A DNA stretch of 64,000 nt from a virus. Its lineage: Duplodnaviria > Caudoviricetes. The position numbers and the translations under genes are program-made. This document shows, in pieces, positions 8,060-56,781 of the stretch. A model generated the notes under the pieces. It was given only the letters and a program-made list of their open reading frames with translations. It was not told where the DNA came from and ran no database searches. The stretch is taken from IMG/VR virus record IMGVR_UViG_3300028601_000031, positions 1 through 64,000 of that record, one strand, 5' to 3'. The number at the start of each line of letters is the position of its first letter. Positions within the stretch are counted from its first letter, which is position 1.

Positions 8060-9520
8060 ATGAAATTAATAACCAGTTATAATGATTATATAGTAGAAAA
8101 AATGTTAGTAGAATCAATAAGAGAAATGAAATTTGTTTTATCTGATAGATTAATTGATATATTAAAATCAATATACAGTGATATATCAGATAAACTATTA
8201 AAATCACATAATGATTTAGATTTTAAGACTAAACATACATTTATAGATATTAAAGATGGTACAGATGATTCAATATCATTTATATTGGCTAATAAAGCTG
8301 GTGATTTATTGGAAATTGATGATGAAGAAGAACTTGATTCTAATATAGAATTTAAAAAGAAATTAAGAGATGAAATAAAAATAGATAATCCTTTATACAA
8401 AAGATATAGAGGTTCTATGAAAATAGGAAGATTTATAAATACCTTATTTCCAGGTGAGTTTCAATCATCATCAAGATATAAACAATATAAAATTAATGAT
8501 GTTGAGTCATTTGTTAATATGTATAAAGTAATGTCTAATAAGGAAGAAAAATTTAAAATGTTTGATTTAGTAAGTGGAACAGATATTGCAAAATGGTATT
8601 ATTGTGATAATTATTTAGACAGAAATAATGGATCATTAGGTGGTTCTTGTATGTCAAGACACGGTGAATCATATTTTACACTTTATACTAATAATGATGA
8701 TAAAGTACAATTATTAATATACTACTCAGATGAAACAAAAACAAAAATAAAAGGTAGAGCATTAGTATGGAAATTAGATGAACCTAATGATAGATTTTAT
8801 ATGGATAGAATATATACAAATGACTATTCAGATGAAAAAATATTTATAGAATACGCTAAATCAAAAGATTGGTTATTTAGATCAATACAAGGCTATCAAC
8901 AAAGTGGAGAAATTGCTGATCCTAGAACTGAAATAAATTCAAATATTATACTAAAAGTATATTTAAAACCAGAACATCACAATAAATATCCATATTTAGA
9001 TACATTGGTTTATCATAATCCTGATACTGGATTGTTAAGTAATAGAGAGACAGGATGTAAATATTTATTAACTAGTACAGGTGGTGATTATGATTATCTA
9101 GATGATGATTATGATACTGTTTATAGTGATTATCATGGCGATGATATAATGAGAAGAGATGCAGTATATTGTGAATTAGGAGAAGATTGGGTATTAAGAG
9201 ATGAAGCATTAAGAGTTTATAATACTGGTTTAGGTAGTGAAGTATATGCAATATCTGGTTATCAAGGTATTGTACATTCTGTAATAAGTAATAAGATAGA
9301 TAAATATTTCCCAGAAGAAAAATGTATATGGTCAGATTATCATAATACTTGGATATTTAAAACAAGTGCAAGAAAAGTATATTTAGATAAAAATAAAACA
9401 AGTAGTATTTTAGATCATAAAGTAAATGAAAATGAAACATTTGCTAAAGTGGGAGAAGAATACTATGATATAGGACTAGTGACAAAAGACAGTAATAATA
9501 ATTGGAAATTAAAGGACTAA
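8060..9520 (+). CDS. SCM/MDRIY/YPYLDT family, paralog 2
   Basis: Same motifs plus C-terminal extension. Confidence 0.75.
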   Translation: MKLITSYNDYIVEKMLVESIREMKFVLSDRLIDILKSIYSDISDKLLKSHNDLDFKTKHTFIDIKDGTDDSISFILANKAGDLLEIDDEEELDSNIEFKKKLRDEIKIDNPLYKRYRGSMKIGRFINTLFPGEFQSSSRYKQYKINDVESFVNMYKVMSNKEEKFKMFDLVSGTDIAKWYYCDNYLDRNNGSLGGSCMSRHGESYFTLYTNNDDKVQLLIYYSDETKTKIKGRALVWKLDEPNDRFYMDRIYTNDYSDEKIFIEYAKSKDWLFRSIQGYQQSGEIADPRTEINSNIILKVYLKPEHHNKYPYLDTLVYHNPDTGLLSNRETGCKYLLTSTGGDYDYLDDDYDTVYSDYHGDDIMRRDAVYCELGEDWVLRDEALRVYNTGLGSEVYAISGYQGIVHSVISNKIDKYFPEEKCIWSDYHNTWIFKTSARKVYLDKNKTSSILDHKVNENETFAKVGEEYYDIGLVTKDSNNNWKLKD

Positions 9521-9537
9521 TATTTTAGTCCTTTTTT
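9511..9537. terminator. Terminator hairpin at convergent stops
   Basis: AAAGGACTAA/TTAGTCCTTT. Confidence 0.65.
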
Positions 9538-10800
9538 AATTTTATTTAATTGGAAATTAATATCATCCTTGTATGTTATTCTAATTAATTCAATATTGTT
9601 ATTTGAGCAATATTCATTTTTTATTTTATCTTTTGTTTTTTGTTCATTTAATCTTTTATCACCACCAAAAACTTTTAAAGATTTAAAATGTTGAATACCA
9701 TCATATTCAATACAAATATTATAATCTGTTAAATAAAAATCGAAAGGTAATGGTAGTTTATATTTACAATCTTTGAATCTTTTTTGATTGATATATTTTA
9801 TATTATTATCTTCTAAAAATATTCTTATTTTTCTTTCTCCTATAGATTCTTTACATTTCGGACAACCACTTTTTTTGCTTATATGATTATTTGGTGTTAC
9901 GTTAAAATCACCGTGTATTGGACAAGTTACTATCATTTTTGTTGAATTATTAATATAAATTGATTTATTATAAGAATAAAAATTATTATGAACATCATTT
10001 GATTTTTTTATAATATCATTTAAATTATTTTTTAATTTACCACTACATTTAATGCAACCGTGCCCTTTTAAATGGTCATCTGGTCTTTGTTCAAAAACAC
10101 CGTGTTTTGGACAAATTATTTTAACTTTAGTTTTATTATTAATGTAATTAACTAAAGAATAGTTATAATAATTATTATGTTTAATATTTGATAATCTTTT
10201 AAATTCTTTTTCAGATTTCTTTGTATCTTGACATTTTGGACATTTTTGACCATTTAAATGAGCATATGGTCTTTGTTCAAATAAACCATGTATAGGACAA
10301 ATTATTTTAACCTTAGTTTTATTATTTATATAATTAACCAAAGAATAATCATAATAATTATTATGAATAATTAATGATTTATTTATAAATTTATCATTAT
10401 TATATCTTAATTTATCGATATGACATGATGGACAACCATTACCTTTTAAATGAGCATATGGTCTTTGTTCAAACATACCATGTACAGGACAAATTATTTT
10501 TACTTTAATATGTGAATTTTTATAATTAACTAAAGAATAATCATAATAATTATTATGAATTAATATTGATTTTTTTATAAAATCTTCATTTGTAATAATT
10601 CTTTTTAAGATACTACATTTTGGGCATTTTGATCCTCTAATATGATGTGATGGTAATTGTTCAAAAACGCCGTGAATTGGACATATAATTTTAATTTTTG
10701 TGTTATTATTAATATAATCAATTAAAGAGTAGTCATAATAATTATTATGAACTTTATTACAACATTTTTTTAATTGATCAATTGTTCTTTTTTTACTCAT
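9517..10800 (-). CDS. Putative homing endonuclease: 5 Zn-binding repeats (DUF723-like) plus PD-(D/E)xK/Vsr-like nuclease
   Basis: Repeat YDYS..Y....K.KIICPxHG.F.Q.P..H..G..CxxC; C-terminal FDFY, IEYDGIQH, LIRI. Confidence 0.8.
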   Translation of the reverse strand: MSKKRTIDQLKKCCNKVHNNYYDYSLIDYINNNTKIKIICPIHGVFEQLPSHHIRGSKCPKCSILKRIITNEDFIKKSILIHNNYYDYSLVNYKNSHIKVKIICPVHGMFEQRPYAHLKGNGCPSCHIDKLRYNNDKFINKSLIIHNNYYDYSLVNYINNKTKVKIICPIHGLFEQRPYAHLNGQKCPKCQDTKKSEKEFKRLSNIKHNNYYNYSLVNYINNKTKVKIICPKHGVFEQRPDDHLKGHGCIKCSGKLKNNLNDIIKKSNDVHNNFYSYNKSIYINNSTKMIVTCPIHGDFNVTPNNHISKKSGCPKCKESIGERKIRIFLEDNNIKYINQKRFKDCKYKLPLPFDFYLTDYNICIEYDGIQHFKSLKVFGGDKRLNEQKTKDKIKNEYCSNNNIELIRITYKDDINFQLNKIKKGLKY

Positions 10801-12033: not shown

Positions 12034-12081
12034 AATATTTAAATTTTAAATTTGATTACAAATATATAAATAATTTTTTAA

Positions 12082-12365: not shown

Positions 12366-13988
12366 TTAATTACTATGTAATGAGTTTTCAACATCAATTT
12401 CAATTATTTTAACAATTCCCTTAGGATCATTTATTCTAGGTGCTGTTCTAGTAGTCAATATAAGAGTTTTACCTTTTATCATTGAAAAATCTAAATGATC
12501 ACATTCACCGTCAGTTAACATAACAGTATTATACGAAAATAGTTTGTTTTTAGGTTCACTAATATAATCCAAAGCAGGTTGCAATGTAGTTCCACCTAAT
12601 CCCTTTATTACTAATTTTTCCAAATCTTTTTTTGTTTTAATGCCCTCTACTGCTTTAACTTGTGTATCAATTTGAATAAGATTTATATGAATATCGTTTT
12701 GGAATACGTATGATAAAACTGATTCAAAATCACCACTCATTGATCCTGATGTATCTAAAATACAATTTATTACATTTTTAAATTTTTTCTTACCCTTTAT
12801 ACCCTCAATGCCTCTTCTATTTGGTTTAGTAATAGATTTTCTTTTAGTTGTACCAAACACATGATGAGATATAGTTCTTTTAATTTCTTTAAGGTAATCA
12901 TGTTTTGATTTTCTTAATTTATTAAGAATTTTCTCAACATCTGATGTAACAAGACCTCTGTTTTTAAGTCTTTGCATGAAATCATTAACCATAGATTTTC
13001 TAGCATCCTCTGGTACATCATCATCTATATGACTATCCAATGTAGTTTTTTCTCCTCTTTCCATAGAATCAAATATTGAATCTAAAGATTGACATTCTAT
13101 ATTATTTTGTCCATAGTTACCTATTCTATCTTTACCAAAACTATCTTTTGTGTGATCTATATCACTATTATCACCATTTTGGTCAGATTCTTGGTCACCT
13201 GGTTGTTGTCCACCTTGACCAATATCATCGTTTTCCCCTTTGCCTTTTCCTCCTTTTTGTTTACTGTTACCACTTTGTCCACCTTTTTGTTCTTGACTTT
13301 TATCTTGACTTTGTTCTTGATTTTGATCTTGACTTTGTGATTTATTATTATAATTTTGTAATTTTTCTTTTCTATTTTTATATTCTGCATATTTATCTTT
13401 TAACCATTCGTAAAGGTTTTCGAATATATGTTCTCCTTTGTATTCAACAGGAATAAACAATCCCATATTTTTATTATAGAAAGGATTTTTAATAGGATTT
13501 CCATTTTTATCTAAAACAGGTGTTCCATCTTTTTTAGTTAAAAATTCTTCTCTGCTTTTTGGAATTGTTACTTTACCTTTATTCTTATCATTAGACATGA
13601 TTTCATCATGAATGATTTGATTAATAATCATATCTTGTGCAATATTAGAGAATTCCTTATTATACATAATTGATCTTTTTGTGTGATCAAATAATAGGTG
13701 AAAATCTTCATGTAATAATAAGAATAATGCTTCAGTATCTAATAAACTATCTACGAATTCTCTATTCCAGTAAAAATTACATCCTTCCTTTGAAACATTT
13801 ACTCCACAAGTAGGAATACTATTTGTTTCATAATAGTTAAGGAAAGTTTGAAATTCGGCATAATATGGTAAAATGTTAGCAGATAACATCATCACAGTAC
13901 AATCAATAAATTTAGGATGTTCTCCTTTTCTCATTATTAATTGTGATGTATTTTTTACGATTTCATTATTTTTAATTTCTTGATTCAT
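12366..13988 (-). CDS. Metallopeptidase-like (HExxH) plus vWA domain protein
   Basis: LHEDFH, Q/G-rich linker, LDTSGSM, GGT, LTDG. Confidence 0.85.
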   Translation of the reverse strand: MNQEIKNNEIVKNTSQLIMRKGEHPKFIDCTVMMLSANILPYYAEFQTFLNYYETNSIPTCGVNVSKEGCNFYWNREFVDSLLDTEALFLLLHEDFHLLFDHTKRSIMYNKEFSNIAQDMIINQIIHDEIMSNDKNKGKVTIPKSREEFLTKKDGTPVLDKNGNPIKNPFYNKNMGLFIPVEYKGEHIFENLYEWLKDKYAEYKNRKEKLQNYNNKSQSQDQNQEQSQDKSQEQKGGQSGNSKQKGGKGKGENDDIGQGGQQPGDQESDQNGDNSDIDHTKDSFGKDRIGNYGQNNIECQSLDSIFDSMERGEKTTLDSHIDDDVPEDARKSMVNDFMQRLKNRGLVTSDVEKILNKLRKSKHDYLKEIKRTISHHVFGTTKRKSITKPNRRGIEGIKGKKKFKNVINCILDTSGSMSGDFESVLSYVFQNDIHINLIQIDTQVKAVEGIKTKKDLEKLVIKGLGGTTLQPALDYISEPKNKLFSYNTVMLTDGECDHLDFSMIKGKTLILTTRTAPRINDPKGIVKIIEIDVENSLHSN

Positions 13989-14031
13989 TCTGGTTATTTT
14001 ATAAATTATGGTACAAAAATAATAAAAAGTT

Positions 14032-14946
14032 TTAAATATTCAAAAAGTTTTTTAACTTTTCTTCTATATTATCATTATATTTTATTCTTAGTAGATTTAT
14101 ATTATTATTTTTACAATATTCGTTCTTTATTTGATCTCGTTTTTTTAATTTTTCTAATTTTTCAATACCTCCAAAAAATTTTAAAGGTTCGAAATGTTGA
14201 ATTCCATCATGTTCTATACATGAATTATATTCAGGTAAATAAAAATCAAATTTTAACAATTTTTTGTATTTACAATCATTAAATATTTTTTGTGTTTCAA
14301 AATTTATATTATTATTTTTTAATAGACTTTCTATATATTTTTCACCTTTTGGTATATTACACTTTGGACATCCTGATTTTTTATTTATGTGATTATTTGG
14401 TGTTACTTGAAAAATACCGTGTTTTTTACATATTATTTTTACTTTAGTTTTTGCATCAATATAATTACATAAACTATAATTCCATTCATTATTATGAATT
14501 ATATTTGATTCTTTTATAAAATTTTCATTTGTTTTTTGAATATTATTTGCGCAATATTTACAACCTTTTCCGTTTAAATGATTATTAATTTGTTGTTTAA
14601 ATATACCATGAATAGGACATATTATTTTTATTATCGTTTTTTGTGTTTTATAATTATTATCATTATCATTTAAAAACAAAGAATATTCATATTTATTATT
14701 ATGTATTTTATTAGATTTATTAATTATTTCTTCTTTTGTTAATTTTATATTTCTACCATTACATTTTGGACATTTTTGACCTTGTGAATGATCATTTGGT
14801 CGTTGTTCAAATATACCATGTTTTTTACATATTATTTTTACTTTAGTTTTTGTATTTATAAAATTAACTAATGAATAATCATATTCATCTTTATGAACTT
14901 TAATAAAATTTTTAATTATATCATATTTTGTTAATTTTATTCCCAA
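14032..14946 (-). CDS. Putative homing endonuclease with 3 Zn-binding repeats
   Basis: Paralog of 9517..10800; FDFY, IEHDGIQH. Confidence 0.8.
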   Translation of the reverse strand: MGIKLTKYDIIKNFIKVHKDEYDYSLVNFINTKTKVKIICKKHGIFEQRPNDHSQGQKCPKCNGRNIKLTKEEIINKSNKIHNNKYEYSLFLNDNDNNYKTQKTIIKIICPIHGIFKQQINNHLNGKGCKYCANNIQKTNENFIKESNIIHNNEWNYSLCNYIDAKTKVKIICKKHGIFQVTPNNHINKKSGCPKCNIPKGEKYIESLLKNNNINFETQKIFNDCKYKKLLKFDFYLPEYNSCIEHDGIQHFEPLKFFGGIEKLEKLKKRDQIKNEYCKNNNINLLRIKYNDNIEEKLKNFLNI

Positions 14947-16357: not shown

Positions 16358-16408
16358 ATTATTTTATTTTTTACAAAAATACACATATTTTAATAACTAA
16401 ACAAATAA

Positions 16409-24505: not shown

Positions 24506-25584
24506 ATTTATAAGTTTTTATAGTTTTTTAAAAAATTAATTTCTTCTTTTGTTATAGATTCTAATCCTGATTTTTGTATTTTATATAATATTTCATCTAT
24601 ATCTAATGATTGTATATTATTATAGTTAATTTTATCATCTTCTCTTAATAAATCATTTTGTCTTTTTATAATACCCTTTAACTCTATTATATAATTTGTT
24701 TGTTTATTACAAATATCAATATATTCGCTATTTTGTTTCATTAATTTTTTAGCAGAATCATATATAGATTCAGATGATTTCATTATTTTTTTAATTGTTA
24801 AACTAGTTCTCCATAATCTAATGGATAGAATAGCAATTATTGAAGATAATATTATTACTAATATATTTAAGTTCATTTAAAATTATTTTTAGATATTAAC
24901 AATTTGTTTTTCTGTTGGTTCTACTACTTTTAATGGCACAAATAAATCATAACCATTATCATCTTCCATATGATTTATTTTATCAATTGACCAATGACCA
25001 AATTTATTTCTCATATAAAGAAATTTATCACCATCCCATTTAGCAACACTGGCATTTCTACACCTACCTAAATAGTAATTACCAATAATTAAATCTTTTT
25101 TCGGTATAACACCTTTACTAAAAAGTTCATTGTACATAGATTCTGGTATTGGTTTAGGTAAACGACCAACTTTATAATAATTAGTTTCGTCAAATTTTTC
25201 AATATTTGGATAATGTATCATGTTTAAAATGTTTAAATACAAAAATAATAAATAAATTTTAAATATCAAAACTTATTCATTATTATCGTCATCTTTTTTT
25301 CTTGTTCTTGTATTTTTTTGTGTATCTTCTTTTTGTGTATCTTCTTTACAGATGAACAGTTGATAAAGTTCTAGTATTCTACTTATATCACCATATTCTT
25401 TTAAGAATTTCTCATGTGAACTTGCTATAATAAGCGGATCTACTGTTATTTTACCTTTATGTGATTTATATGCATCATGTAATATCATATATTCTTCTGT
25501 TAAGAATTTAACTTTTTCTACTAATAATTCAATTAAGTTCGATTGTTCTATTTCAATTTTATTCTTCATAATATTTTTTATTTT

Positions 25585-26853: not shown

Positions 26854-26890
26854 AATAAAAAACCCCGAATTAATTCGGGGTTTTTTATTT
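26852..26890. terminator. Bidirectional terminator
   Basis: AAAAAACCCCGAAT/ATTCGGGGTTTTTT between convergent genes. Confidence 0.85.
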
Positions 26891-29348
26891 ATTTGTCATT
26901 CATATTTGTTATAGTATCACCTGATATTGGTATTAACATTTTAGTTATATTAACTATCTCTAATTTATCTTCTGTTTGAGATTTCGCAATAATTATCTTA
27001 TCTCCATTTACAACTTCTTTTGTTATAATCTTTATAGATACTTCATCTTGTATATATTTTTGTATTGCTCTTTTTAATGGTCTTGCTCCCATATCTTCAT
27101 CCCATCCTTTTTCAAATATAAAATCTTTAGCAGTTTCATCCAATTCAATATCGATATTATTATCAATTAATCTATTTCTAAAATTATCTAGTTCAATATC
27201 AATAATACTTTTAATATTATCTTTACTAAGACTATCGAAATGAACAACTTCATCAATTCTATTTAAGAATTCGGGTGAGAATTTTTTCTTTAATTCTTTT
27301 TCAACAATTGATTTACTCATAACTTGTTTATCACTATTAAATCCAATTCCAGCTCCTCTTAGTTTTGCTTCTTTTGAACCAATATTTGAAGTCATAATAA
27401 TAACAGTATTTTTAAAATCAACAGTTCTTCCCTGACTATCTGTTAATATACCATCATCAAATACTTGTAATAGTACATTCCATACATCATTGTGTGCTTT
27501 TTCGATTTCATCTAGAAGGATAATAGAATATGGCTTATTTTTAACTGCATCTGTCAATTGTCCACCATCTTCGTGACCAACGTATCCAGGAGGTGCTCCA
27601 ATTAATCTAGATACAGAGTGTTTCTCCATATATTCTGACATATCTATTCTAATATAATCTCTTTCACTATTAAATAATTGTTCAGCCAATTTTTTAACCA
27701 TATGTGTTTTTCCTGTACCAGTAGGACCTAGTAATAAAAATGTACCAATTGGTCTTTTTCCATCATTTAATCCAGCCTTGTTTCTTAATATAGCCATTGA
27801 TATTTTATCAACTGCGTCGTCTTGTCCAATTATCTTTTTCTTCAATTCAAATGGTAAATTTACAAGTTTAGATGTATCATCATCTGTTATATTTTTAGAT
27901 GGTATATTTGTCATTATAGAAATAACTTCATATACATCTTCTTTTCTAACCTTTTTTCTTTTTGATAATCTTTTATTTTTAAGATCATTTTTCATTATTT
28001 CAAGTTCAGATTCTATTGATCTTTGTTGTTTTAACAATTCTGCCGCTGATAAAAAATCTTGTTCTGATACTTTTTTTAATTTTTGTTTAGTTATTTCATC
28101 TAATTCATTTTCCTTATTGATTATATCAACAGGTGTTTCAATATTAATCCTAACAGATGCACCAGCTTCATCCATAACATCAATCGCTTTATCAGGAAAT
28201 TGTCTATCAGATATATATCTATCAGATAATTTTAAACATGCTATTATGGATTCATCTGTATATTCCACCATGTGGTGATTTTCATATCTATCTTTAAGAT
28301 TTTTAAGAATTTCATATGTTTCATTATATGTTGGTTCATTTACTCTAATTTTTTGGAACCTTCTTTCTAATGCACCATCTTTTTCGATCTTTTTATATTC
28401 TTCATTTGTAGTAGAACCAATGCAACTAATTTCACCCCTTGATAATGCTGGTTTTAAAATATTTGCAGCATCTAATGATCCTGTTGATCCGCCCGCTCCA
28501 ACTATTGTATGAATTTCATCAATATAGATAATAATATCTGAGTTTTGTTTTAATTCATCGACAATTTTTTTCATTCTTTCTTCAAATTCTCCTCTGTATT
28601 TAGTACCAGCTACAACAGAACCCATTTCTAGTGATAATATTCTCTTATTATGTAAAATATCAGGTGTTTCTTTATTGATGATAGCTTGTGCTAAACCATC
28701 AACAATAGCAGTTTTCCCAACACCTGCACTACCAATAAGAATAGGGTTATTTTTTTTCCTTCTAGAAAGGACTTGTGCAATTCTTTTAATTTCTTTTTCT
28801 CTACCGATGACAGGATCTAACTTATTTTGTTTTGCTAAATCTGTTAAATCTGTACTAAATTCATCTAGAATTGGTGTTTTTGTTTTTTTATAAGGTACAT
28901 TAGTTCCAGTTGGATTATCATCTTTTTCCATATTAGAATTTTTATTAAATACTTTATTATAAATATTTTCAGCATCGGTATATGTAACATTTGGTATAAC
29001 TTTAGCTCTTATAATAGATAATACAAGATGCTCTGTTCTTACGATACTTGAATTAAACTTTTTTGCTTCTAATTGGGATTGCATCATTATATTTTGTGCT
29101 TCGGTACTTAATGATGCTAAATCGTCATCTTTTTTTTCAATTGTATCAACAGATATTGGATCACTATTTAAAAATGTTTTCATTTTTTTCTTAGCATTAT
29201 CAATATCAATAATATTTGATAGTATTTTATAACCATTACAATCATTTGTACTTATTATTCCAAATAATAAATGAGGAGGTTCAATTAAACCATTAGAGTA
29301 CTCCTTTGCTTTCTTAATTACTTTTTTAAAATTTTCTGAATATTCCAT
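26889..29348 (-). CDS. clpC: ClpC-like AAA+ unfoldase
   Basis: Clp N-domain, GSAGVGKT and GPTGTGKT, UVR-like middle domain, GIGF ClpP-docking loop, GARPL. Confidence 0.9.
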   Translation of the reverse strand: MEYSENFKKVIKKAKEYSNGLIEPPHLLFGIISTNDCNGYKILSNIIDIDNAKKKMKTFLNSDPISVDTIEKKDDDLASLSTEAQNIMMQSQLEAKKFNSSIVRTEHLVLSIIRAKVIPNVTYTDAENIYNKVFNKNSNMEKDDNPTGTNVPYKKTKTPILDEFSTDLTDLAKQNKLDPVIGREKEIKRIAQVLSRRKKNNPILIGSAGVGKTAIVDGLAQAIINKETPDILHNKRILSLEMGSVVAGTKYRGEFEERMKKIVDELKQNSDIIIYIDEIHTIVGAGGSTGSLDAANILKPALSRGEISCIGSTTNEEYKKIEKDGALERRFQKIRVNEPTYNETYEILKNLKDRYENHHMVEYTDESIIACLKLSDRYISDRQFPDKAIDVMDEAGASVRINIETPVDIINKENELDEITKQKLKKVSEQDFLSAAELLKQQRSIESELEIMKNDLKNKRLSKRKKVRKEDVYEVISIMTNIPSKNITDDDTSKLVNLPFELKKKIIGQDDAVDKISMAILRNKAGLNDGKRPIGTFLLLGPTGTGKTHMVKKLAEQLFNSERDYIRIDMSEYMEKHSVSRLIGAPPGYVGHEDGGQLTDAVKNKPYSIILLDEIEKAHNDVWNVLLQVFDDGILTDSQGRTVDFKNTVIIMTSNIGSKEAKLRGAGIGFNSDKQVMSKSIVEKELKKKFSPEFLNRIDEVVHFDSLSKDNIKSIIDIELDNFRNRLIDNNIDIELDETAKDFIFEKGWDEDMGARPLKRAIQKYIQDEVSIKIITKEVVNGDKIIIAKSQTEDKLEIVNITKMLIPISGDTITNMNDK

Positions 29349-31893: not shown

Positions 31894-31939
31894 GCTTTAA
31901 TTTTTTACAAAAATAATAAAATTATTTTAATAAAAAAAA

Positions 31940-37934: not shown

Positions 37935-38025
37935 ATTTTATAATTAATATATTAGTAATTTTATTATTTAATACAAAGATATAACAAAAAATTAAAATAA
38001 AAAATAATTTTAAAAAATTTAACAT

Positions 38026-42865: not shown

Positions 42866-44320
42866 TTAATTTAAATAACTATTTAATATATTATCGATAT
42901 CATCAATATCATTATAAGGTATTCTCAGTAAATTTATGTTATTATTTTTACAATATTCGGTTTTAATGGAATCTCTTAATTTTTGTTTTTTAAATGATTT
43001 AATTCCACCAAAATATTCATTAACTTCAAAATGTTGTTTACCGTCAAATTCAATACATAAATTATAATCAGGTATATAAAAATCAAATTTTAAGGGGTTT
43101 ATATGTTTACAGTCTTTGAAGGATTTTTGGTGTATGTGATCAATTTTATTATCATTTAAATATTTTTTTATGGATAATTCACCTTTAGATGATTTACATA
43201 TAGGACATCCATTATTTTTAATGTGATATTTTGGTTTTTGTTCAAAAATACCATGAATCGGACAAATTATTTTTACTTCAGTTAAATTATTTTTATACTT
43301 AACTAATGAATAATCATATTTATCATTATGTATTTCTTTTGAATCTTTAATAAATTGTTCATAATTCTTTCTTTTTTTACCACTACAATCATAACACCCT
43401 TTATTTGTTAAATGACTACTTGGTAATTGTTCAAAAATACCATGAATCGGACAAATTATTTTTACTTTAGTATAATTGTTTATATATTTAACTAAAGAAT
43501 AATCATATTTATTATTGTGTAATTTTACAGATCTATCAATAAAATCAACTGTTGTTAATTTTTTATTATTAGAACATACAGGACATCCAGATCCATTTAG
43601 ATGATCAATTGATGATTGATTAAAAATACCATGTTTCGAACAAATTATATTAATTTTTATCATAGTGTTTTTATAATTAACTAAAGAGTAATCGTATTTA
43701 TCACCATGAATATTTTTACATTTTTTTATAAATTGTTCTGTCGTTAATATATTTTTTGCACACTTATTACAACCTATATTTAACAGATGACTATTTGGTG
43801 TTTGTTCAAAAATACCATGAACTGGACAAATAATTTTAACTTTTGTTTTGTTATTTTTATATTTAACTAACGAGTAGTCATATTTATTGTTATGAATTAT
43901 ATTTGAACGTTTTATAAATTCATCTTTATTCAATCTACTATTACCATAACACAGTGGACATCCTTGTTTATTCAAATGATTTTTTGGTGTTTGTTTAAAT
44001 TCACCATGTTTTTTACATATAATAATAACTTTTGTTTTAACATTAATATAGTTAACTAAACTATAATCATATTCAAAATTATGAACAATATTTGATTTAT
44101 TTATAAATTGTTCTTTGGTAAATTTTTTATTTATAATCGCGCATTTAGGACAACCATTATTAATATGATTATCTGGTCTTTGTTCAAATATTCCGTGTTC
44201 TTTACATATTATTTTAACTTTAGTCTTACTATTTATATAATCAACTAAAGAATAGTCATATTTATAATTATGTTTTTCGTTTGATTTATTTATAAACTCT
44301 TCTTTATTTGACTTTTTCAT
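42866..44320 (-). CDS. Putative homing endonuclease with 6 Zn-binding repeats
   Basis: Paralog of 9517 and 14032; FDFY, IEFDGKQH. Confidence 0.8.
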   Translation of the reverse strand: MKKSNKEEFINKSNEKHNYKYDYSLVDYINSKTKVKIICKEHGIFEQRPDNHINNGCPKCAIINKKFTKEQFINKSNIVHNFEYDYSLVNYINVKTKVIIICKKHGEFKQTPKNHLNKQGCPLCYGNSRLNKDEFIKRSNIIHNNKYDYSLVKYKNNKTKVKIICPVHGIFEQTPNSHLLNIGCNKCAKNILTTEQFIKKCKNIHGDKYDYSLVNYKNTMIKINIICSKHGIFNQSSIDHLNGSGCPVCSNNKKLTTVDFIDRSVKLHNNKYDYSLVKYINNYTKVKIICPIHGIFEQLPSSHLTNKGCYDCSGKKRKNYEQFIKDSKEIHNDKYDYSLVKYKNNLTEVKIICPIHGIFEQKPKYHIKNNGCPICKSSKGELSIKKYLNDNKIDHIHQKSFKDCKHINPLKFDFYIPDYNLCIEFDGKQHFEVNEYFGGIKSFKKQKLRDSIKTEYCKNNNINLLRIPYNDIDDIDNILNSYLN

Positions 44321-52235: not shown

Positions 52236-53158
52236 TTTAATCTTTTTGGTATTTAGATATTTGTGTAATTTCATTATGGGTGAAACCAGATCTTTCTAAA
52301 GCTTCAGCAAAAGGAATCCATACATTTTCTTTTTGTGGTTCACCAGAACAATAACCATAATAATCTCTAGTTCCCCACCTATCTACAACAGCTTTAGTTC
52401 GTGCTACTAGTTTATTTTTATCTTTAATAAGTTTAGCCATTCTAGATGCGCATGATTGAAAAGGAGCACCATTACCATAAAATGTACGTCCGTTAAACTG
52501 AAGACTATCTGCTCTTTCGTAATCTTTTTTAGTTGGGATAATTTTATCAATATCTATTCCATTCATAATATTTAATTTCTACAAAGATAAATAATAAAGA
52601 TTAAATATCCAAATTTGTTCTAATATAATGATTATATAATTTCCTTTTTAATTTTCCACCATAATTATTTAACCAATTATTTATTTTCATTATCAATATT
52701 TCTTTCGGTTATTATTACATATGATATTCTCCAAAATGAATATAATACAACCCAAGTTACATAAGTCCACCACCACCCACGTACCGATGTTAATATAAGA
52801 GTAAATAACGTTATTAAAATTATTGTGATTATTGTAATAAATTCTTGTTTATTTGCCCATTCATTTGATTTAATTATAAATTTTTTCATATTATTTTATG
52901 TTTTGTGGTATATTATCATCAAATAACATTGATATACTTAATTGACTTTGTATCATTTCCAAAAATAAATACTTACACATTGTCCAATCATAATTTGCAC
53001 CTGTTCTACTAATAACTTCCCCATCATCATTATAATGTGGTGTAGTTTGACTAATATTATATTTTGACATAATATCATAAAATTTATTTTTACAGTCTGA
53101 TATGGTATCGGTGTCATTAAATTTTAATGATATGATTTCTTTTGCAATATCGTTCATT

Positions 53159-53869
53159 TTATTTTCCATTTTTAACATTTTTAACAATTAATTGATTATC
53201 AATTTGTTCCAATTCTATTTCTTGGATATCTTTTGTTGATTTTATATGATCTATAAATTCAATAAAACCATCTTTAAATGATTTTTCTTGTTTAAATTTT
53301 CCACTTCGATATGATTTTTTAAATTTTCTAAATAGTTCATTTAATTCATTTAATGTAAATGGGTAATTATCAGAATTTTCTAATACAGTTATTTTTTGAT
53401 CTAAAATAGAACCAAACCAATAAGTACCATCGGTTTTAAATTTTATTTTATCATCTACTTTTAAACATAAACCATAGTTATCTTCAATAACACTACCAAT
53501 ATAAGTTTGATAACCTAAATTTTCATATTGTGATTGATTTGGGAATGGTTTAGGTTGTTCTAATTCATAAATAGTAGTAACTGATAAAATATTACCAACT
53601 TTCCAAGGATCTATGTATTTACTGATATCAAATACTGGTATATTTTCAAGTTCAAATGATGAATAAATAACCCTTTTAGTATTTTCACAAATTGCATTCA
53701 ATTTACCTTTTGGTGTTCCATCATTTTTAAATAGGTACCATCCTCTACCTGATAAATTAATACCATGTGCAAATGAAACACCATAATCACCAATTTCAAC
53801 TTTATCGTCTGTAGTGATAACGTATCCTTCTTTTACTTTAAATAGATTTTTATTAATTATTGCTTTCAT
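53159..53869 (-). CDS. Hypothetical protein
   Basis: First ORF downstream of the T-loop RNA. Confidence 0.6.
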   Translation of the reverse strand: MKAIINKNLFKVKEGYVITTDDKVEIGDYGVSFAHGINLSGRGWYLFKNDGTPKGKLNAICENTKRVIYSSFELENIPVFDISKYIDPWKVGNILSVTTIYELEQPKPFPNQSQYENLGYQTYIGSVIEDNYGLCLKVDDKIKFKTDGTYWFGSILDQKITVLENSDNYPFTLNELNELFRKFKKSYRSGKFKQEKSFKDGFIEFIDHIKSTKDIQEIELEQIDNQLIVKNVKNGK

Positions 53870-53895
53870 GTTTATATTTATTTAGAAATTAAAAT

Positions 53896-54051
53896 GTATT
53901 GCTATTTGAGTTGGATTCGAACCAACAGGCGGATGCCTCCTTTTCTACAACCATTCACATTTCTGCGGTCAGGAATCGAACCTGAGAGAGCAACCACTGA
54001 TCACACACCGAGTTGAACGGGCTACCTACCAATCTGTTCAAATAGCAATAC
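53896..54051 (-). ncRNA. tRNA-like ncRNA with three T-loop arms
   Basis: 14-bp closing stem; CCG-UUCAACU-CGG, UCAGG-UUCGAUU-CCUGA, GUUGG-UUCGAAU-CCAAC; no anticodon arm or CCA evident. Confidence 0.75.
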
Positions 54052-54055
54052 TATA

Positions 54056-54086
54056 CAAAGATATAAAAATATTTTTAATAAACAAA
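54056..54086 (-). promoter_or_regulatory. Bacteroidota-type promoter directly before the T-loop RNA
   Basis: TTTG-N19-TATCTTTG ending 4 nt before the closing stem. Confidence 0.8.
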
Positions 54087-55342
54087 ATTTAATAACAATA
54101 TGAATCGTCATTTTCACCAGAAGGATAATATAAACTTTTACCTAAACTATTTATTTCATCTCTTTCTTTTTCCAATTCACGTCTATTGCTTTCAATGATT
54201 CTCCTATTAACTTTAGATTCCCATCTTTTTGATTTTGCTTTATTAATATTTTTTCTTACTTCATTTCTCCAACTCATAATTAATTATTTTTAATATTTTA
54301 TCTTTTCTTTTATATTTTTCTAAAAATTTCATAGTATTATCATACATATTAATTTTACTATTTAATCTTTTTTGTTGTCTTAATAATTCTTTTATTGTAT
54401 TATTTTTTGTTTCAAATAACTTATCATAAAATCTATTTATCAATTCTATTTCTTTTTTCTTTAAATATTCTTCATTGTTTATTTTTCTTGTTATAAATGT
54501 AGAGTATGTTAAATCTGTTTTATTATAACTATAATTATTATCAAAATAAAATTTATCCCAACTTTCACCATCACGAAAACCAACTCTAAAATATTCTCTT
54601 GTTAATATAATTTTATCACTGTATAAATTCAATGAAATTCTATATGATATAGGTTCATCTTTAAAACTATCTAAGTCTGATTTTTCTTTTATAATTAATT
54701 CCATTTGAAAGTTTTTTAATTTTTGATTGTCTTAATACCATATTAAAAAAATCTATAGATATTTTACCTGAAAAAAATTCTTGAAAATTATAATGTTCCC
54801 ATAAGTTACCCTCAATTATTTTAAATTCATCATTTACAATTTTTGCAAATTGTGGCATATTTAAATCAAATTTATCAAGATGTTGTGTCATCTTTTCATT
54901 AGACGATGTTGAAAATGTGTTATATTTAACATATTCTTCATCACATTTTAATAGAAAATTAAGTATTAAACATGCACCTATTTGAATATCTTCATCATTT
55001 AATTTCATATCGATTTAACAGTATTATTATAATTCCAAACTTTAACTAAACGATTATATTCGTCATTATTTAATCTATCTTTTAATGGTATCCATCCAGT
55101 TACACATGATGATTGTTTTAATCCATTTGGTGTATCATATACCCAATAGTAATCTTCTTCGCCATCTACTACATCAACCAGTCTAACCACATCAAAAAAA
55201 TCTAAAACTAGTGTATTTTTATATGGTTCTAATTCTTTTTTTAATTCTATTAACGTCGCCATTTTCTTAAAAATTTAGGTGTGAAATATCCAATTAAGAA
55301 TCCAATAACACCAAATCCCCATATTGGTATATATCTAACTAT

Positions 55343-56781
55343 ATGAACTACACATTAGCTAAAGACTAATGTGTTTCAGGAATATACCTTCTCTTTAATC
55401 GTTTCATTGCTTATGCCATTTAATTCCGAGAAATTATTTGGTCTTATTTTTGCTCCGCGATCGTTATCAGATGTTCCGTCTGATATATTTAATCTTAATC
55501 CTTCTTTTAATATATTTATGGCTGCATTAATATCTCTATCTAGTTTAGCACCACATTTATTACATATCCATTTTCTTTGATGAAGTTTTAAGTTTTGATT
55601 TATATGACTACATTTATTGCAAGTTTTAGATGAAGGGAAAAATCTATCTACTTTAATTAATTGTTTATCGTTCCAATCACATTTATAACTTAAAATATCG
55701 ATGAATCTACCCCAGCTAACGTCAGAAATTGATTTAGATAGTTTTCTATTTTTAATCATTCCTTTGATATTTAAATCTTCAATGTAAATAGTATCAAATT
55801 CATTAATTAGTTTAAATGTTATTTTATGTAACATATCTGATCTAGAATTTGAAATCTTTTCATGGATTCTACAAACTTTTAATCTTTGTTTTTCGTATCT
55901 TTTTGATCCCCTTGTTTTTCTTGATAAATGTTTTTGATTTAAACTTAATTTTCTTTCATATTTCTTTAAATATCTGATGCCCTTGGTTTTCGAACCATTA
56001 GATAGAGATATGAAGTCATTTAAACCTAAATCCATACCAATATTTTTATTGGTTTTTTTAACTGGTTGATATTCTTTTTCGACTAAAATTGAAACATAAT
56101 ATTTACCAGTTGAGGTCTTTGATATAGAACATTTTTTAATTAAACCTTCTATATTCCTGTGTTTAACCATTTTAATCCCACCTTTAAACTTTGGTATAAT
56201 TAAATAGTTATCTTCTACCTTTACACTCTGTGGTACAGTAAAGGTATTTTTTGTTTTTCTACTTTTAAATCTAGGAAATCCACTTCTTTTTTTAAAAAAT
56301 GATTGGTATGCTATATCCAAACAATTTAAACTATATTGTAAGGTCTGTGAATTAATTTCTTTTAACCACTGATAATCAGGATCTTTTTTAAGTTTAGTTA
56401 AAAAAGAAGATTGTTGGTTATAAGTTATAGATTTTTTATTATTAACGTATTCTTCTTTTCTTTGGTTTAAAAAATGGTTGTATACAAATCTGACACATCC
56501 AAAATACCTATTTAAAATATATTGTTGTTCTTTATCAGGGTTTAACCTGAATTTATATGTATATATTATATTTTTCATCTTTATAGTAATTAATTCCTTT
56601 ACTATAAATATATATTAAATGAAAAATATCACTTTTTTCCATTTTTACAATTTAAATATCTAACAGATTGATTATTAGTTATTTAAATTTTAAAAATATT
56701 TTTAAAAAATTAAATTCAATTGAAATTTATTGAAATTCATCCCTCTAACTAAAGATTAGATGGTTTTCTTTCAAGGTGAAT
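55343..56781 (-). mobile_element. Non-autonomous IS200/IS605-family (TnpB-only) element
   Basis: Subterminal hairpins near 55350-55374 and 56738-56763, right end GTAGTTCAT, inserted 3' of TTTAT, no target duplication, no tnpA. Confidence 0.85.
55376..56578 (-). CDS. tnpB: RNA-guided endonuclease TnpB
   Basis: YKFRLNP HTH, GMDLG, IEDL, CNKC/CNKC zinc finger, DRDINAA. Confidence 0.95.
   Translation of the reverse strand: MKNIIYTYKFRLNPDKEQQYILNRYFGCVRFVYNHFLNQRKEEYVNNKKSITYNQQSSFLTKLKKDPDYQWLKEINSQTLQYSLNCLDIAYQSFFKKRSGFPRFKSRKTKNTFTVPQSVKVEDNYLIIPKFKGGIKMVKHRNIEGLIKKCSISKTSTGKYYVSILVEKEYQPVKKTNKNIGMDLGLNDFISLSNGSKTKGIRYLKKYERKLSLNQKHLSRKTRGSKRYEKQRLKVCRIHEKISNSRSDMLHKITFKLINEFDTIYIEDLNIKGMIKNRKLSKSISDVSWGRFIDILSYKCDWNDKQLIKVDRFFPSSKTCNKCSHINQNLKLHQRKWICNKCGAKLDRDINAAINILKEGLRLNISDGTSDNDRGAKIRPNNFSELNGISNETIKEKVYS

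Follow-up and report, generated by a model that had tools for sequence, protein, structure and literature searches.

A phage RNA gene with three tRNA elbow-like modules belongs to a covarying RNA family

A structured RNA gene of 156 nt was identified on the minus strand (54051..53896) of the window, the stretch of 64,000 nucleotides that was analysed here, where it forms a GC-rich element inside a jumbo-phage fragment of 23% GC. It was confirmed as a real and conserved phage RNA gene, the structure of which is backed by covariation. The element is probably a tRNA-shaped but non-decoding gene for a tRNA-mimic RNA, which would be matured like a tRNA and would represent a widespread and unannotated phage family. 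A preliminary description of this DNA had proposed a structured RNA gene with three tRNA elbow-like modules and without an anticodon arm, and this proposal was supported. It had also treated the element as a singular oddity of one phage; instead, the element is one member of a large family whose members usually lie inside phage tRNA arrays.

Structure of the element in the window

The GC content of the element was 0.51 over 120 nt while the window had a mean of 0.23 (sd 0.058), making it the top GC island in the window. The motif GGTTCRANYCC occurred twice in the window, both times inside the element, with 0.12 occurrences expected and 2 of 100 shuffles reaching two. Since both motifs and the strongest GC island of the window fall within it, the element is more than a chance arrangement. 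The 72,227-nt record to which the window belongs has just one copy of the element.

The minus-strand sequence, the 14-bp stem and the three UUCRANY hairpins quoted in the preliminary description were all present (Table 1), and so was the UGGU ahead of every T-loop hairpin. The last hairpin and the 3' strand of the closing stem are directly adjacent, in agreement with the claimed stacking of the last T-arm on this stem. The parts followed the order D1, T1, D2, T2, D3, hairpin B and T3, together with the long-range helix P2, and all were found at the places expected from the family.

Table 1. Features of the element and of its upstream block in the window
Feature	Position	Strand	Remark
-35-like hexamer TTGTTT	54080..54085	-	Read from sequence; putative promoter role
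-10-like hexamer TATCTT, 16-nt spacer	54058..54063	-	Predicted +1 near G at 54051
Closing stem, 14 bp	54051-54038 with 53909-53896	-	Inner 7 bp correspond to the acceptor-like stem of the family
D1, GG-bearing D-loop-like segment without stem	54028..54037 (RNA 15-24)	-
P2 5' strand, long-range 4-bp helix	54024..54027 (RNA 25-28)	-
T1 hairpin, 3 bp, 7-nt T-loop-type loop	54008..54020	-
D2 arm, 4-position stem including one U.C mismatch, 7-nt loop with GG	53988..54002	-
T2 hairpin, 5 bp, T-loop	53969..53985	-
D3, third GG-containing loop region	53945..53959 (RNA 93-107)	-	A-rich linker after D3
Hairpin B, 4-nt loop	53931..53940 (RNA 112-114 with 119-121)	-
P2 3' strand	53927..53930 (RNA 122-125)	-
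T3, T-arm on closing stem	53910..53926	-	5 + 7 = 12 bp as in tRNA

All three 7-nt loops match the T-loop consensus, with a pyrimidine at the position of purine 37 in an anticodon loop. A GG-bearing segment at the place of D1 was also present in the family members listed. The four pairs of P2, read from the window sequence, are A-U, G-C, G-C and U.G. The stem of D3 is weak in the window, and the mini-hairpin flanking it was 77.4% paired in the family. The closing stem of the window continues for 7 bp beyond the inner 7 bp of the family, an extension shared by about 10 of the 56 distinct members, and the base which follows the inner 7 bp in the window is G, not A.

A small hairpin AGGC/GCCU, drawn in the preliminary description, is probably a wrong pairing, because the 3-bp hairpin B together with the 4-bp P2 agrees better with the alignment of the family and with a naturally occurring G-to-U change at RNA 115. 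Another helix (RNA 45-48 with 85-88) fitted the window and one natural change; it was absent in the family and was dropped from the model. The MFE fold of the lone window sequence (-48.7 kcal/mol) was a different fold from the family structure, which had -33.3 kcal/mol as a bare fold and -39.8 kcal/mol when the remaining sequence was free to fold. The MFE z-score of the element was just -2.33.

Members and distribution of the family

The first patterns, with two T-loops or with a D-loop plus two T-loops, picked up tandem tRNAs for the most part, and nhmmer detected no homolog in the two-T-loop set. These first listings did reveal closed multi-T-loop RNAs. L231, a second haplotype of the phage in the window, came from a metagenome scan, as did high-GC actinophage-like contigs in which the parts are ordered alike. 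The three-T-loop pattern was found at more than 118 viral loci and at 75 genome loci, and 7 of the 75 genome matches were members. The members were gathered with patterns requiring three T-loops, thus the invariance of the loops among them is partly built in.

Scores with covariance model R1 fell into two groups, 62 matches (56 of them distinct sequences) standing at or above 68 bits and everything else at or below 52 bits. The sources of the 62 matches were phage contigs (22-68% GC), cultured phages of Streptomyces, including Comrade and NootNoot, and four Streptomyces genomes, and the members are 130-156 nt long. When the genomes of one genus were sampled, at least 2 of 121 held a member, which is a lower bound since 27 first-look candidates were scored per genome. 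With this count and with 7 members among the 75 genome matches, the family is mostly phage-borne. On the window, R1 reached 72.4 bits (E 6.4e-16, 53903-54044). Model R2, which was built from 56 rows that include neither the window nor L231, reached 58.2 bits (E 1e-14) over model positions 1-133, and its match at 53904-54043(-) was the sole one at E<=1 in the window and in the 72,227-nt record.

Covariation and conserved structure

RNAalifold recovered the three T-arms and nothing else from a MAFFT alignment. A structure was therefore drawn manually on one member before it was put to the test. Alignments A5 and A6 were fitted to the model, and A3 was a sequence-only MAFFT alignment. In A5, 88.3% of cells were paired versus 62.0% in shuffles, and the covariation score was 0.641 versus 0.166 (0/500 shuffles), with slid controls at 0.094-0.137. 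The corresponding values in A3 were 80.3% versus 61.4% for pairing and 0.463 versus 0.159 (0/500) for covariation.

The closing helix was 97.6% paired in the family and all six of its pairs covaried. Covariation was also observed in the stems of T1 (95.0% paired, 4/5 pairs covarying), T2 (100%, 2/4) and T3 (94.5%, 4/6), and in hairpin B, which is helix 8 of the family (91.2%, 3/4). P2, helix 2 of the family, was 79.5% paired with two covarying pairs (GC 17 / AU 14 and CG 17 / GC 15), and the register of the model at this helix was one base off for the subgroup of the window. D2 was poorly aligned in the model (60.5% paired). The linker between T1 and T2 folded as a hairpin whose loop contains GG in 51 of the 54 analysable distinct members, the MFE fold of the window's own linker being among the three without such a hairpin. 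Of the 56 distinct members, 53 have G in one GG column of D3 and 54 in the other, and one A of the linker was invariant (56/56).

Natural variation

Natural variation was read from the DNA contigs of four runs. L231 differed from the window by 12 substitutions, which broke 0 of 37 pairs and included two double compensatory changes, while just 0.27% of 200,000 random sets of 12 substitutions broke no pair. In the closing stem, C:G at RNA 7:150 was changed into A:U. In D2, G:C at RNA 50:64 became U:A, the U.C mismatch at 52:62 became G:C, and C:G at 53:61 became U.G. D1 was unchanged. The T1 loop was altered at two positions and remained UUCRANY, with a would-be anticodon of Leu in one haplotype and Ser in the other. 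The change at RNA 115 lies inside the loop of hairpin B, and the R position of the loop was the sole change in T3.

Genomic context

A tRNA called by ARAGORN was located within 500 nt of 33 of the 56 distinct members, in all 33 cases on the same strand and often 2-7 nt away; 17 members had one within 15 nt, and 23 had none within 500 nt. The first base 3' of the stem was A in 37/56 members, and AC followed in 28/56. The NootNoot member occupies the space that separates tRNA-Gly from tRNA-Arg. The Comrade member, partly annotated as tRNA-Ser(tcg), is flanked by tRNA-Arg and the tmRNA gene. The same-strand tRNA neighbours, the A after the stem and these two placements speak for tRNA-like handling. 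The copy in the window is atypical, with no same-strand tRNA array and no tRNA in 64 kb, in a record that is about 18% complete (CheckV). No neighbour protein was common to more than 4 of the 56 member loci, and the 15 largest clusters were all without the window.

The preliminary description had placed a full host-type promoter upstream of the element. The consensus score did not bear this out, since a scan of 2 kb returned 22 sites versus 19.2 expected, which is not significant by itself, and selected other hexamers (TTAAAA-17-TATAGT at 54078-54050). What speaks for a promoter is recurrence: the upstream block is repeated in the same record (G000 70270-70311(-) and 37971-38010(-)), the spaced motif has a further exact match at 16372-16404(-), giving 2 matches versus 0.02 expected, and motifs related to the block precede ORFs. 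The -10-like hexamer was identical in L231. The upstream block is a candidate promoter, for which the recurrence is better evidence than the consensus score.

Comparison with known RNAs

ARAGORN called neither a tRNA nor a tmRNA gene in the 64-kb window, and Rfam 15 gave no match at gathering score. At E<=10, two Rfam matches were returned, both at chance level, and the tRNA family (RF00005) had no match at this threshold in 53600-54400. ARAGORN and Rfam had been named as checks in the preliminary description with no full match expected, and none was found at the element. The Rfam tRNA model also missed the eight member loci tested at E<=1. The tmRNA families of Rfam had no match in the window, nor had RF02553 (YrlA) at E<=10. 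With blastn, 1 kb around the element gave no match to GenBank phages, and members L274, L346 and L229 gave no useful one. The two phages whose Clp-like proteins were the most similar, and the contig bearing the related ligase, were searched by model or by DNA, and only T-arm-sized matches came back. Full-text literature searches, mostly at the level of listings and abstracts, gave no paper describing such an RNA, which agrees with the preliminary description, where no described family was recognised. The triple-T-loop RNA family appears to be so far undescribed.

The element shares with tRNA (RF00005) the 12-bp acceptor/T-arm stack, the T-loop consensus, a GG loop after the 5' strand, an A that usually follows the stem, and a same-strand slot in tRNA arrays, but it has neither an anticodon arm nor a D-stem, and it carries three T-arms in 130-156 nt. 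The tRNA-like domain of tmRNA has an acceptor stem, a T-arm and an unstemmed D-loop, with a helix leaving at the place of the anticodon stem, and by eye the element has the same arrangement. Unlike tmRNA, it has no tag reading frame or pseudoknots and is about one third of the size, and Comrade holds a separate tmRNA gene adjoining its member. The species 1 and 2 RNAs of T4 (rnaC and rnaD), for which we know of no function, are also small stable RNAs in a phage tRNA cluster, and rnaC ends with a canonical T-arm followed by an acceptor-like strand. It has one T-loop whereas the element has three, and since R2, the one model used for this comparison, matched rnaC in part at 17.5 bits (E 0.003), rnaC is not a member of the family.

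YrlA is another non-decoding RNA with a tRNA-like domain which is found in bacteria and phages (PMC4201824). Chen et al. 2014 (PMC4201824) describe RNase P, the CCA-adding enzyme, TruB and DusA as acting on some of the copies, and YrlA is defined by a Ro60-binding module and an adjoining Ro60 (TROVE) gene (PMC4201824). PF05731 (TROVE) had no match in the 72,227-nt record, itself a phage fragment, while control genomes responded. The element differs from the YrlA RNAs so described in that its RNA ends form an acceptor-like stem and it has three T-arms; the phage YrlA RNAs listed in the supplements of PMC4201824 may also have a bearing here. Outside tRNA, the T-loop fold is reused in RNase P, in stem I of the T-box and in the L1 stalk of the ribosome (PMC3664808, PMC4810234). 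In these RNAs, two T-loop motifs in internal loops interlock and read the elbow of another tRNA. The T-arm hairpins of the element are instead complete and three in number, and for each there is a candidate GG partner.

Proposed function and alternatives

The two ends of the RNA pair as an acceptor-like stem which is stacked on a canonical T-arm to give 12 bp in the style of tRNA. A GG loop without stem comes after the 5' strand of the closing stem, and P2 stands in place of the anticodon stem, enclosing two more T-loop hairpins, two more GG-loop elements and a small hairpin. In the reading that we consider probable, each T-loop would dock with one of the three GG loops, so that three tRNA-like elbows would be formed. 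The RNA could then be excised by tRNA-processing enzymes, with RNase P at the 5' end, trimming at the 3' end and perhaps addition of CCA. In the phage of the window, transcription would start from the element's own promoter, and the extra 7 bp of the stem would be removed or tolerated. Such an RNA would not decode; it could mimic the shape of tRNA on a factor which reads the acceptor, the T-arm or the elbow. The non-decoding part of this proposal is drawn from the T-loop-type loops with a pyrimidine at 37, the shift of the would-be anticodon between Leu and Ser, and the lack of a tRNA call by ARAGORN or Rfam.

More tentatively, and with considerable doubt, a dedicated three-elbow RNA in the tRNA arrays of large phages of many hosts could be a multivalent mimic which captures or redirects a host reader of tRNA shape. 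RNase P, the CCA-adding enzyme, T-arm modification enzymes, the elbow contacts of the ribosome or a tRNA-directed defence or toxin are perhaps among its targets. The three-elbow RNA would be matured like a tRNA, and CCA, or even an amino acid, could perhaps be attached to it.

A special case of the mimic was put forward in the preliminary description, namely an early multivalent decoy which, together with a nearby RNA ligase, would shield the phage from host defences or sensors directed at tRNA, whether these cleave, modify or detect it. Phage tRNA arrays have been argued to offset tRNA-targeting defences, and the family is found in phages with such arrays. An RNA ligase gene (PF09414, phrog_548) is located 1.6 kb downstream of the element in the window, and its sole relative among the viral contigs, a ligase of 65% identity on contig L121, is likewise preceded, at about 600 nt, by an odd tRNA-like RNA. 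That RNA, however, scored 17.9 bits with R2 and is not a family member, L121 shares just the ligase out of the 19 window proteins tested, and with no neighbour protein in more than 4 of the 56 loci, and the 15 largest clusters lacking the window, the link to an RNA ligase is not general in the family. Known anticodon nucleases recognise the anticodon loop, which is just the part that this RNA lacks. We regard the decoy as unlikely. An aberrant but decoding class II tRNA, in which the first hairpin would be the anticodon arm and the rest up to the last T-arm a giant variable region, is less plausible again. The first GG loop does resemble the D-loop of class II tRNAs, an ARAGORN tRNA overlaps 6 of the 56 distinct members (Ser 4, Pro 1, Gly 1), the Comrade copy is partly annotated as tRNA-Ser(tcg), and the base after the stem is mostly A. 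Against this, the would-be anticodon loop has the T-loop consensus with its pyrimidine at 37, the D-stem is missing, the 'anticodon' differs between the haplotypes above a stem of just 3 bp in the window, and neither ARAGORN in the window nor the Rfam tRNA model, in the window or at the eight member loci, reports a tRNA.

The remaining readings concern the place and the origin of the element. The ATG of a 236-aa ORF (53869..53159) lies 26 nt downstream of the stem, and since no terminator-like site was found in 53000-55000, the copy in the window could serve as a leader of this ORF, that is, as a cis-acting structured 5' UTR sensing tRNA or a protein and not as a free RNA. But the downstream gene differs among members, most of which lie between tRNA genes, and the 236-aa protein has no relative among the viral contigs and no protein family match, so that a leader role is very improbable. 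Hardly credible is an origin as debris, such as a decayed tRNA array, stacked attachment-site fragments or a small mobile element with inverted repeats, since every helix covaries, the architecture is kept from 22% to 68% GC, the changes between the haplotypes are compensatory and there is one copy in the 72-kb record. These points outweigh the 14-bp inverted repeat that bounds the element and the fact that the same pattern also picked tandem 3' fragments of tRNAs and T-arm-like repeats in bacterial genomes. Random decay of a tRNA array among the homologs had been named in the preliminary description as grounds to abandon its reading; the homologs covary instead.

Significance

Few tRNA mimics are known, and each of them, from tmRNA and Y RNAs to the tRNA-like ends of viruses, has been instructive. 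The architecture of the tRNA-mimic RNA proposed here, with three T-arm/GG-loop modules in one acceptor-like frame, is apparently new. For annotation, the family amounts to a gene-sized gap that recurs in the tRNA arrays of phages, and false tRNA calls arise from it, the copies in cultured Streptomyces phages being either unannotated or partly mislabelled as tRNA-Ser. It reopens an old problem, that of the stable RNAs other than tRNAs which phage tRNA clusters encode (for example species 1 and 2 of T4), and raises the question of which tRNA-reading machine merits a trivalent mimic by phages. Host-phage pairs exist in the cultured Streptomyces phages for direct study. If a three-elbow RNA does capture or redirect a host factor, this would amount to RNA-based host takeover or counter-defence of a new class.

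The RNA element and its phage

A 156-nt element on the minus strand of the window has ends closing by a 14-bp stem, three T-loop hairpins (T1, T2 and T3 in 5' to 3' order) and UGGU before each hairpin, exactly the sequence and parts given in the preliminary description. T3 abuts the 3' strand of the closing stem. The element is the strongest GC island of a window with 23% GC (0.51 vs a mean of 0.23), and the only two GGTTCRANYCC motifs of the window are within it (0.12 expected). As had been anticipated, no full match was obtained: ARAGORN identified no tRNA or tmRNA gene across the 64-kb window, and Rfam 15 gave no match to the element at gathering score, with two chance-level matches at E<=10.

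The source record of 72,227 nt was estimated to be 18% complete by CheckV, so it covers only part of a very large phage genome. Its genes include a Clp-like ATPase/protease (65% identity to the best viral relative), homing endonucleases, a TnpB gene and an RNA ligase.

Locations of the features (G000, the whole record; L-numbers, other loci)
Feature	Location	Strand	Remark
RNA element	window 54051..53896	-	
T1, T2, T3, with UUCRANY loops	window 54020-54008, 53985-53969, 53926-53910	-	
Match of covariance model R2	window 53904-54043	-	58.2 bits, E 1e-14, full model length
TnpB / IS605 OrfB gene (PF01385, PF07282, PF12323; phrog_506)	window 55376-56578	-	1.3 kb upstream of the RNA element
Three HNH / homing-endonuclease genes and 819-aa Clp-like ATP-dependent protease (phrog_4871)	window 42866-44320, 9517-10800, 12366-13988, 26889-29348	all -	
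AT-rich motif ending T(A/T)TNTTTGTA, coding strand	window 12057-12079, 14012-14034, 16372-16404, 25238-25260, 31906-31928	all -	candidate promoter class
AT-rich motif, further copies	G000 70270-70311, 37971-38010	-	
Member in phage Comrade	record 77368-77497		91.4 bits
Annotated tRNA-Ser(tcg) of Comrade	L425:1486-1567 (record 77362-77443)		
tRNA-like gene	L121:4268-4397	+	55-nt insertion in anticodon loop
'Family B' examples	L242:1880-1955, L253:2320-2404, L268:789-863, L279:8491-8567		
Closed tRNA-like RNAs, two T-loop hairpins inside acceptor-like stem	L131:906-988, L140:3187-3269, L137:5134-5206, L066:3860-3922, L071, L059		
T-arm-like unit arrays, bacterial genomes	L381:3691-4280, L387:6009-6513, L380, L388		pattern-scan false positives

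Identification of the family

No close relatives of the element were found in the first searches. Metagenome contigs were scanned with a pattern combining the first GG loop with two T-loops, which gave seven loci, including a second haplotype of the window's phage (L231), whose 16,306-nt contig was also present in a MAG labelled Saccharofermentanales (L356). Loci L228, L229 and L233, also among the seven, on contigs of 58-60% GC with mycobacteriophage-like genes, carried an RNA with its parts in the same order as in the window. A three-T-loop pattern yielded more than 118 viral loci and 75 genome loci, many of the latter being tandem repeats or multiple copies of tRNA 3' fragments. T-arm-like tandem arrays were periodic at 20 nt in a Rubritalea MAG and at 45 nt in a Dehalococcoidia genome, and a tRNA followed by repeated tRNA 3' fragments was another false positive in Curtobacterium.

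Covariance model R1 was built from A3, a MAFFT alignment of 39 hand-picked sequences with the structure set from one member, and was run on the window and most loci (L004-L102; L228-L424 without L233; and also L119 and L134). It gave 62 matches at 68.3-128.8 bits, 56 of them distinct and the window's element among them at 72.4 bits, while everything else scored 52.4 bits or less. One more copy is truncated where its contig stops; L356 is a duplicate of L231. The collecting patterns required T-loop letters, so the T-loop invariance is partly built in; the stems, GG loops and A-rich linker were no part of them. Model R2 was built from 56 rows with the window and L231 left out, and at E<=1 the element was its sole match in the window and in the whole record.

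Structure and covariation

In A5, a model-fitted alignment of 62 rows, 88.3% of cells were paired vs 62.0% in shuffles, and the covariation score was 0.641 vs 0.166 (0/500 shuffles for both); sliding the partners by 1-3 columns gave covariation of 0.094-0.137. Since A5 leans to the model, the count was redone on the sequence-only A3, with 80.3% vs 61.4% paired and covariation of 0.463 vs 0.159 (both 0/500). D2, the second GG-containing region, was poorly aligned because its length varies. When the T1-T2 linker, where D2 lies, was folded alone, 51 of the 54 analysable distinct members gave a hairpin whose loop contains GG.

Pairing in A5
Helix	Cells paired	Covariation
Closing stem	97.6%	all 6 pairs
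T1 stem	95.0%	4/5 pairs
T2 stem	100%	2/4 pairs
T3 stem	94.5%	4/6 pairs
Hairpin B, before T3	91.2%	3/4 pairs
Long-range helix P2	79.5%	two pairs split GC/AU and CG/GC
D3 mini-hairpin	77.4%	all 3 pairs
D2	60.5%	all 3 pairs

The second haplotype, found in contigs of three DNA runs and in L231, is about 5.5% diverged over 1.2 kb and differs at 12 positions of the element. Two pairs changed on both sides in a compensatory way, C:G to A:U within the closing stem and G:C to U:A within the D2 stem; one mismatch became a pair, and one C:G became U.G. The changes in two T-loops fell on their R and N positions and retained the consensus, and three unpaired sites changed: one each in the loops of hairpin B and D2, and one shortly before the D2 arm. 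All 37 pairs stayed intact, as happened in 0.27% of 200,000 trials with random sets of 12 substitutions. This natural variation independently supports the structure and membership of the element. The AGGC/GCCU hairpin proposed earlier is doubted, because one of the haplotype changes falls within the loop of hairpin B. Folded as a single sequence with nearest-neighbour energies, the element favoured another structure (MFE -48.7 kcal/mol, z-score only -2.33), the family fold reaching -33.3 kcal/mol bare and -39.8 with the remainder free to fold; these predicted energies count against the family fold of the element.

Genomic context

The home of the family is phage tRNA arrays. An ARAGORN tRNA was located within 15 nt of 17, 500 nt of 33 and 2 kb of 36 of the 56 distinct members, with the nearest tRNA on the member's strand in 33 of 33. 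The base directly after the stem was A in 37/56 and AC in 28/56; ACCA was encoded in two members, and the stem was extended outwards in about ten, window included. The proposed link with an RNA ligase is not general, with no neighbouring protein common to more than four of the 56 loci. By blastn, two members had relatives in 8 and 26 Streptomyces phage records of GenBank; the single member of Comrade lies between tRNA-Arg and the tmRNA gene, and that of NootNoot (80.4 bits) occupies the unannotated gap between tRNA-Gly and tRNA-Arg. In cellular genomes the family is sporadic: seven of the 75 pattern hits were members (four Streptomyces, two MAGs and a MAG-binned copy of the window's phage), and a one-genus sample had a member in 2/121 genomes, with few candidates scored per genome.

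A full host-type promoter was described earlier for the element. The consensus scan was uninformative (22 sites vs 19.2 expected), while the 40 nt upstream of the closing stem recurred twice in the record on the same strand. The spaced motif had one extra exact match in the window (2 vs 0.02 expected), with looser copies just upstream of ORF starts; read as TTGTTT-16 nt-TATCTT, it would place the transcription start at about the point where the stem begins. The AT-rich motif, whose copies at 12057 and 14012 are directly upstream of ORF starts, may be a phage promoter class judging from sequence. An ORF starts 26 nt downstream of the closing stem, and the scan found no terminator-like site after the element.

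Nature of the RNA

The family is a conserved structured RNA in which an acceptor/T-arm stack resembling that of tRNA is combined with three T-loop hairpins and three GG loops, and the anticodon arm is absent. Each T-loop would be capped by a GG loop in the fashion of the tRNA elbow, and the RNA could be freed by tRNA-processing enzymes, in the window from a promoter-driven, extended-stem transcript. It probably acts as a non-decoding mimic on a factor that reads tRNA shape.

A decoding tRNA is what annotation would suggest for Comrade, where the GenBank tRNA-Ser(tcg) is the first part of the member with its first T-loop taken for the anticodon loop; similar ARAGORN calls (Ser, Pro, Gly) fell on 6/56 distinct members. 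Several features speak against this reading: what would serve as the anticodon loop is a T-loop whose position 37 is a pyrimidine, the D-stem is absent, and the would-be anticodon identity differs between the two haplotypes. The Comrade annotation is probably a false tRNA call. Debris, attachment-site or leader readings are also disfavoured, as covariation and the varied neighbours speak against them. The decoy against defences put forward in the preliminary description is a speculative possibility.

Among known systems, tmRNA is similar in its acceptor stem and T-arm, its D-loop without a stem and the helix that replaces the anticodon stem, whereas the triple T-loop RNA is without tag frame or pseudoknots. 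YrlA likewise has a non-decoding tRNA-like domain (PMC4201824), but the triple T-loop RNA does not match RF02553 and its topology differs; no TROVE gene was present in the 72,227-nt record, a phage fragment. T4 rnaC shares the terminal T-arm and the location in a tRNA cluster, but scored only 17.5 bits with R2.

Several other tRNA-like RNAs were observed. The L121 gene (Rfam tRNA 36.3 bits, none by ARAGORN) lies in 550 nt of GC-rich non-coding sequence, some 600 nt upstream of an RNA ligase that shares 65% identity with that of the window, and was excluded from the family at 17.9 bits with R2. 'Family B' elements measure about 75 nt and combine two T-loop hairpins with a conserved linker rich in purines; they immediately follow a normal tRNA and recur in about 20 phage contigs. 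R1 gave them 31-48 bits, and for the four loci submitted to Rfam there was no hit at E<=0.1. The closed two-T-loop RNAs, one with a 19-bp closing stem, suggest that phages carry a broader range of multi-T-loop RNAs.

In Rfam 15 no family matched the window, nor, at E<=1, any of eight member loci; full-text literature searches found no description of such a three-T-loop RNA, and the abstract of the genome announcement for the cluster BE1 phages names only tRNAs and a tmRNA (PMC5764925). The family thus appears to be undescribed, as first thought. Because the comparison with known systems, Rfam 15 and the literature yields no match, the triple T-loop RNA is rated as a new family within the known kind of tRNA-like non-coding RNA, and cultured phage-host pairs exist in which its function could be tested.
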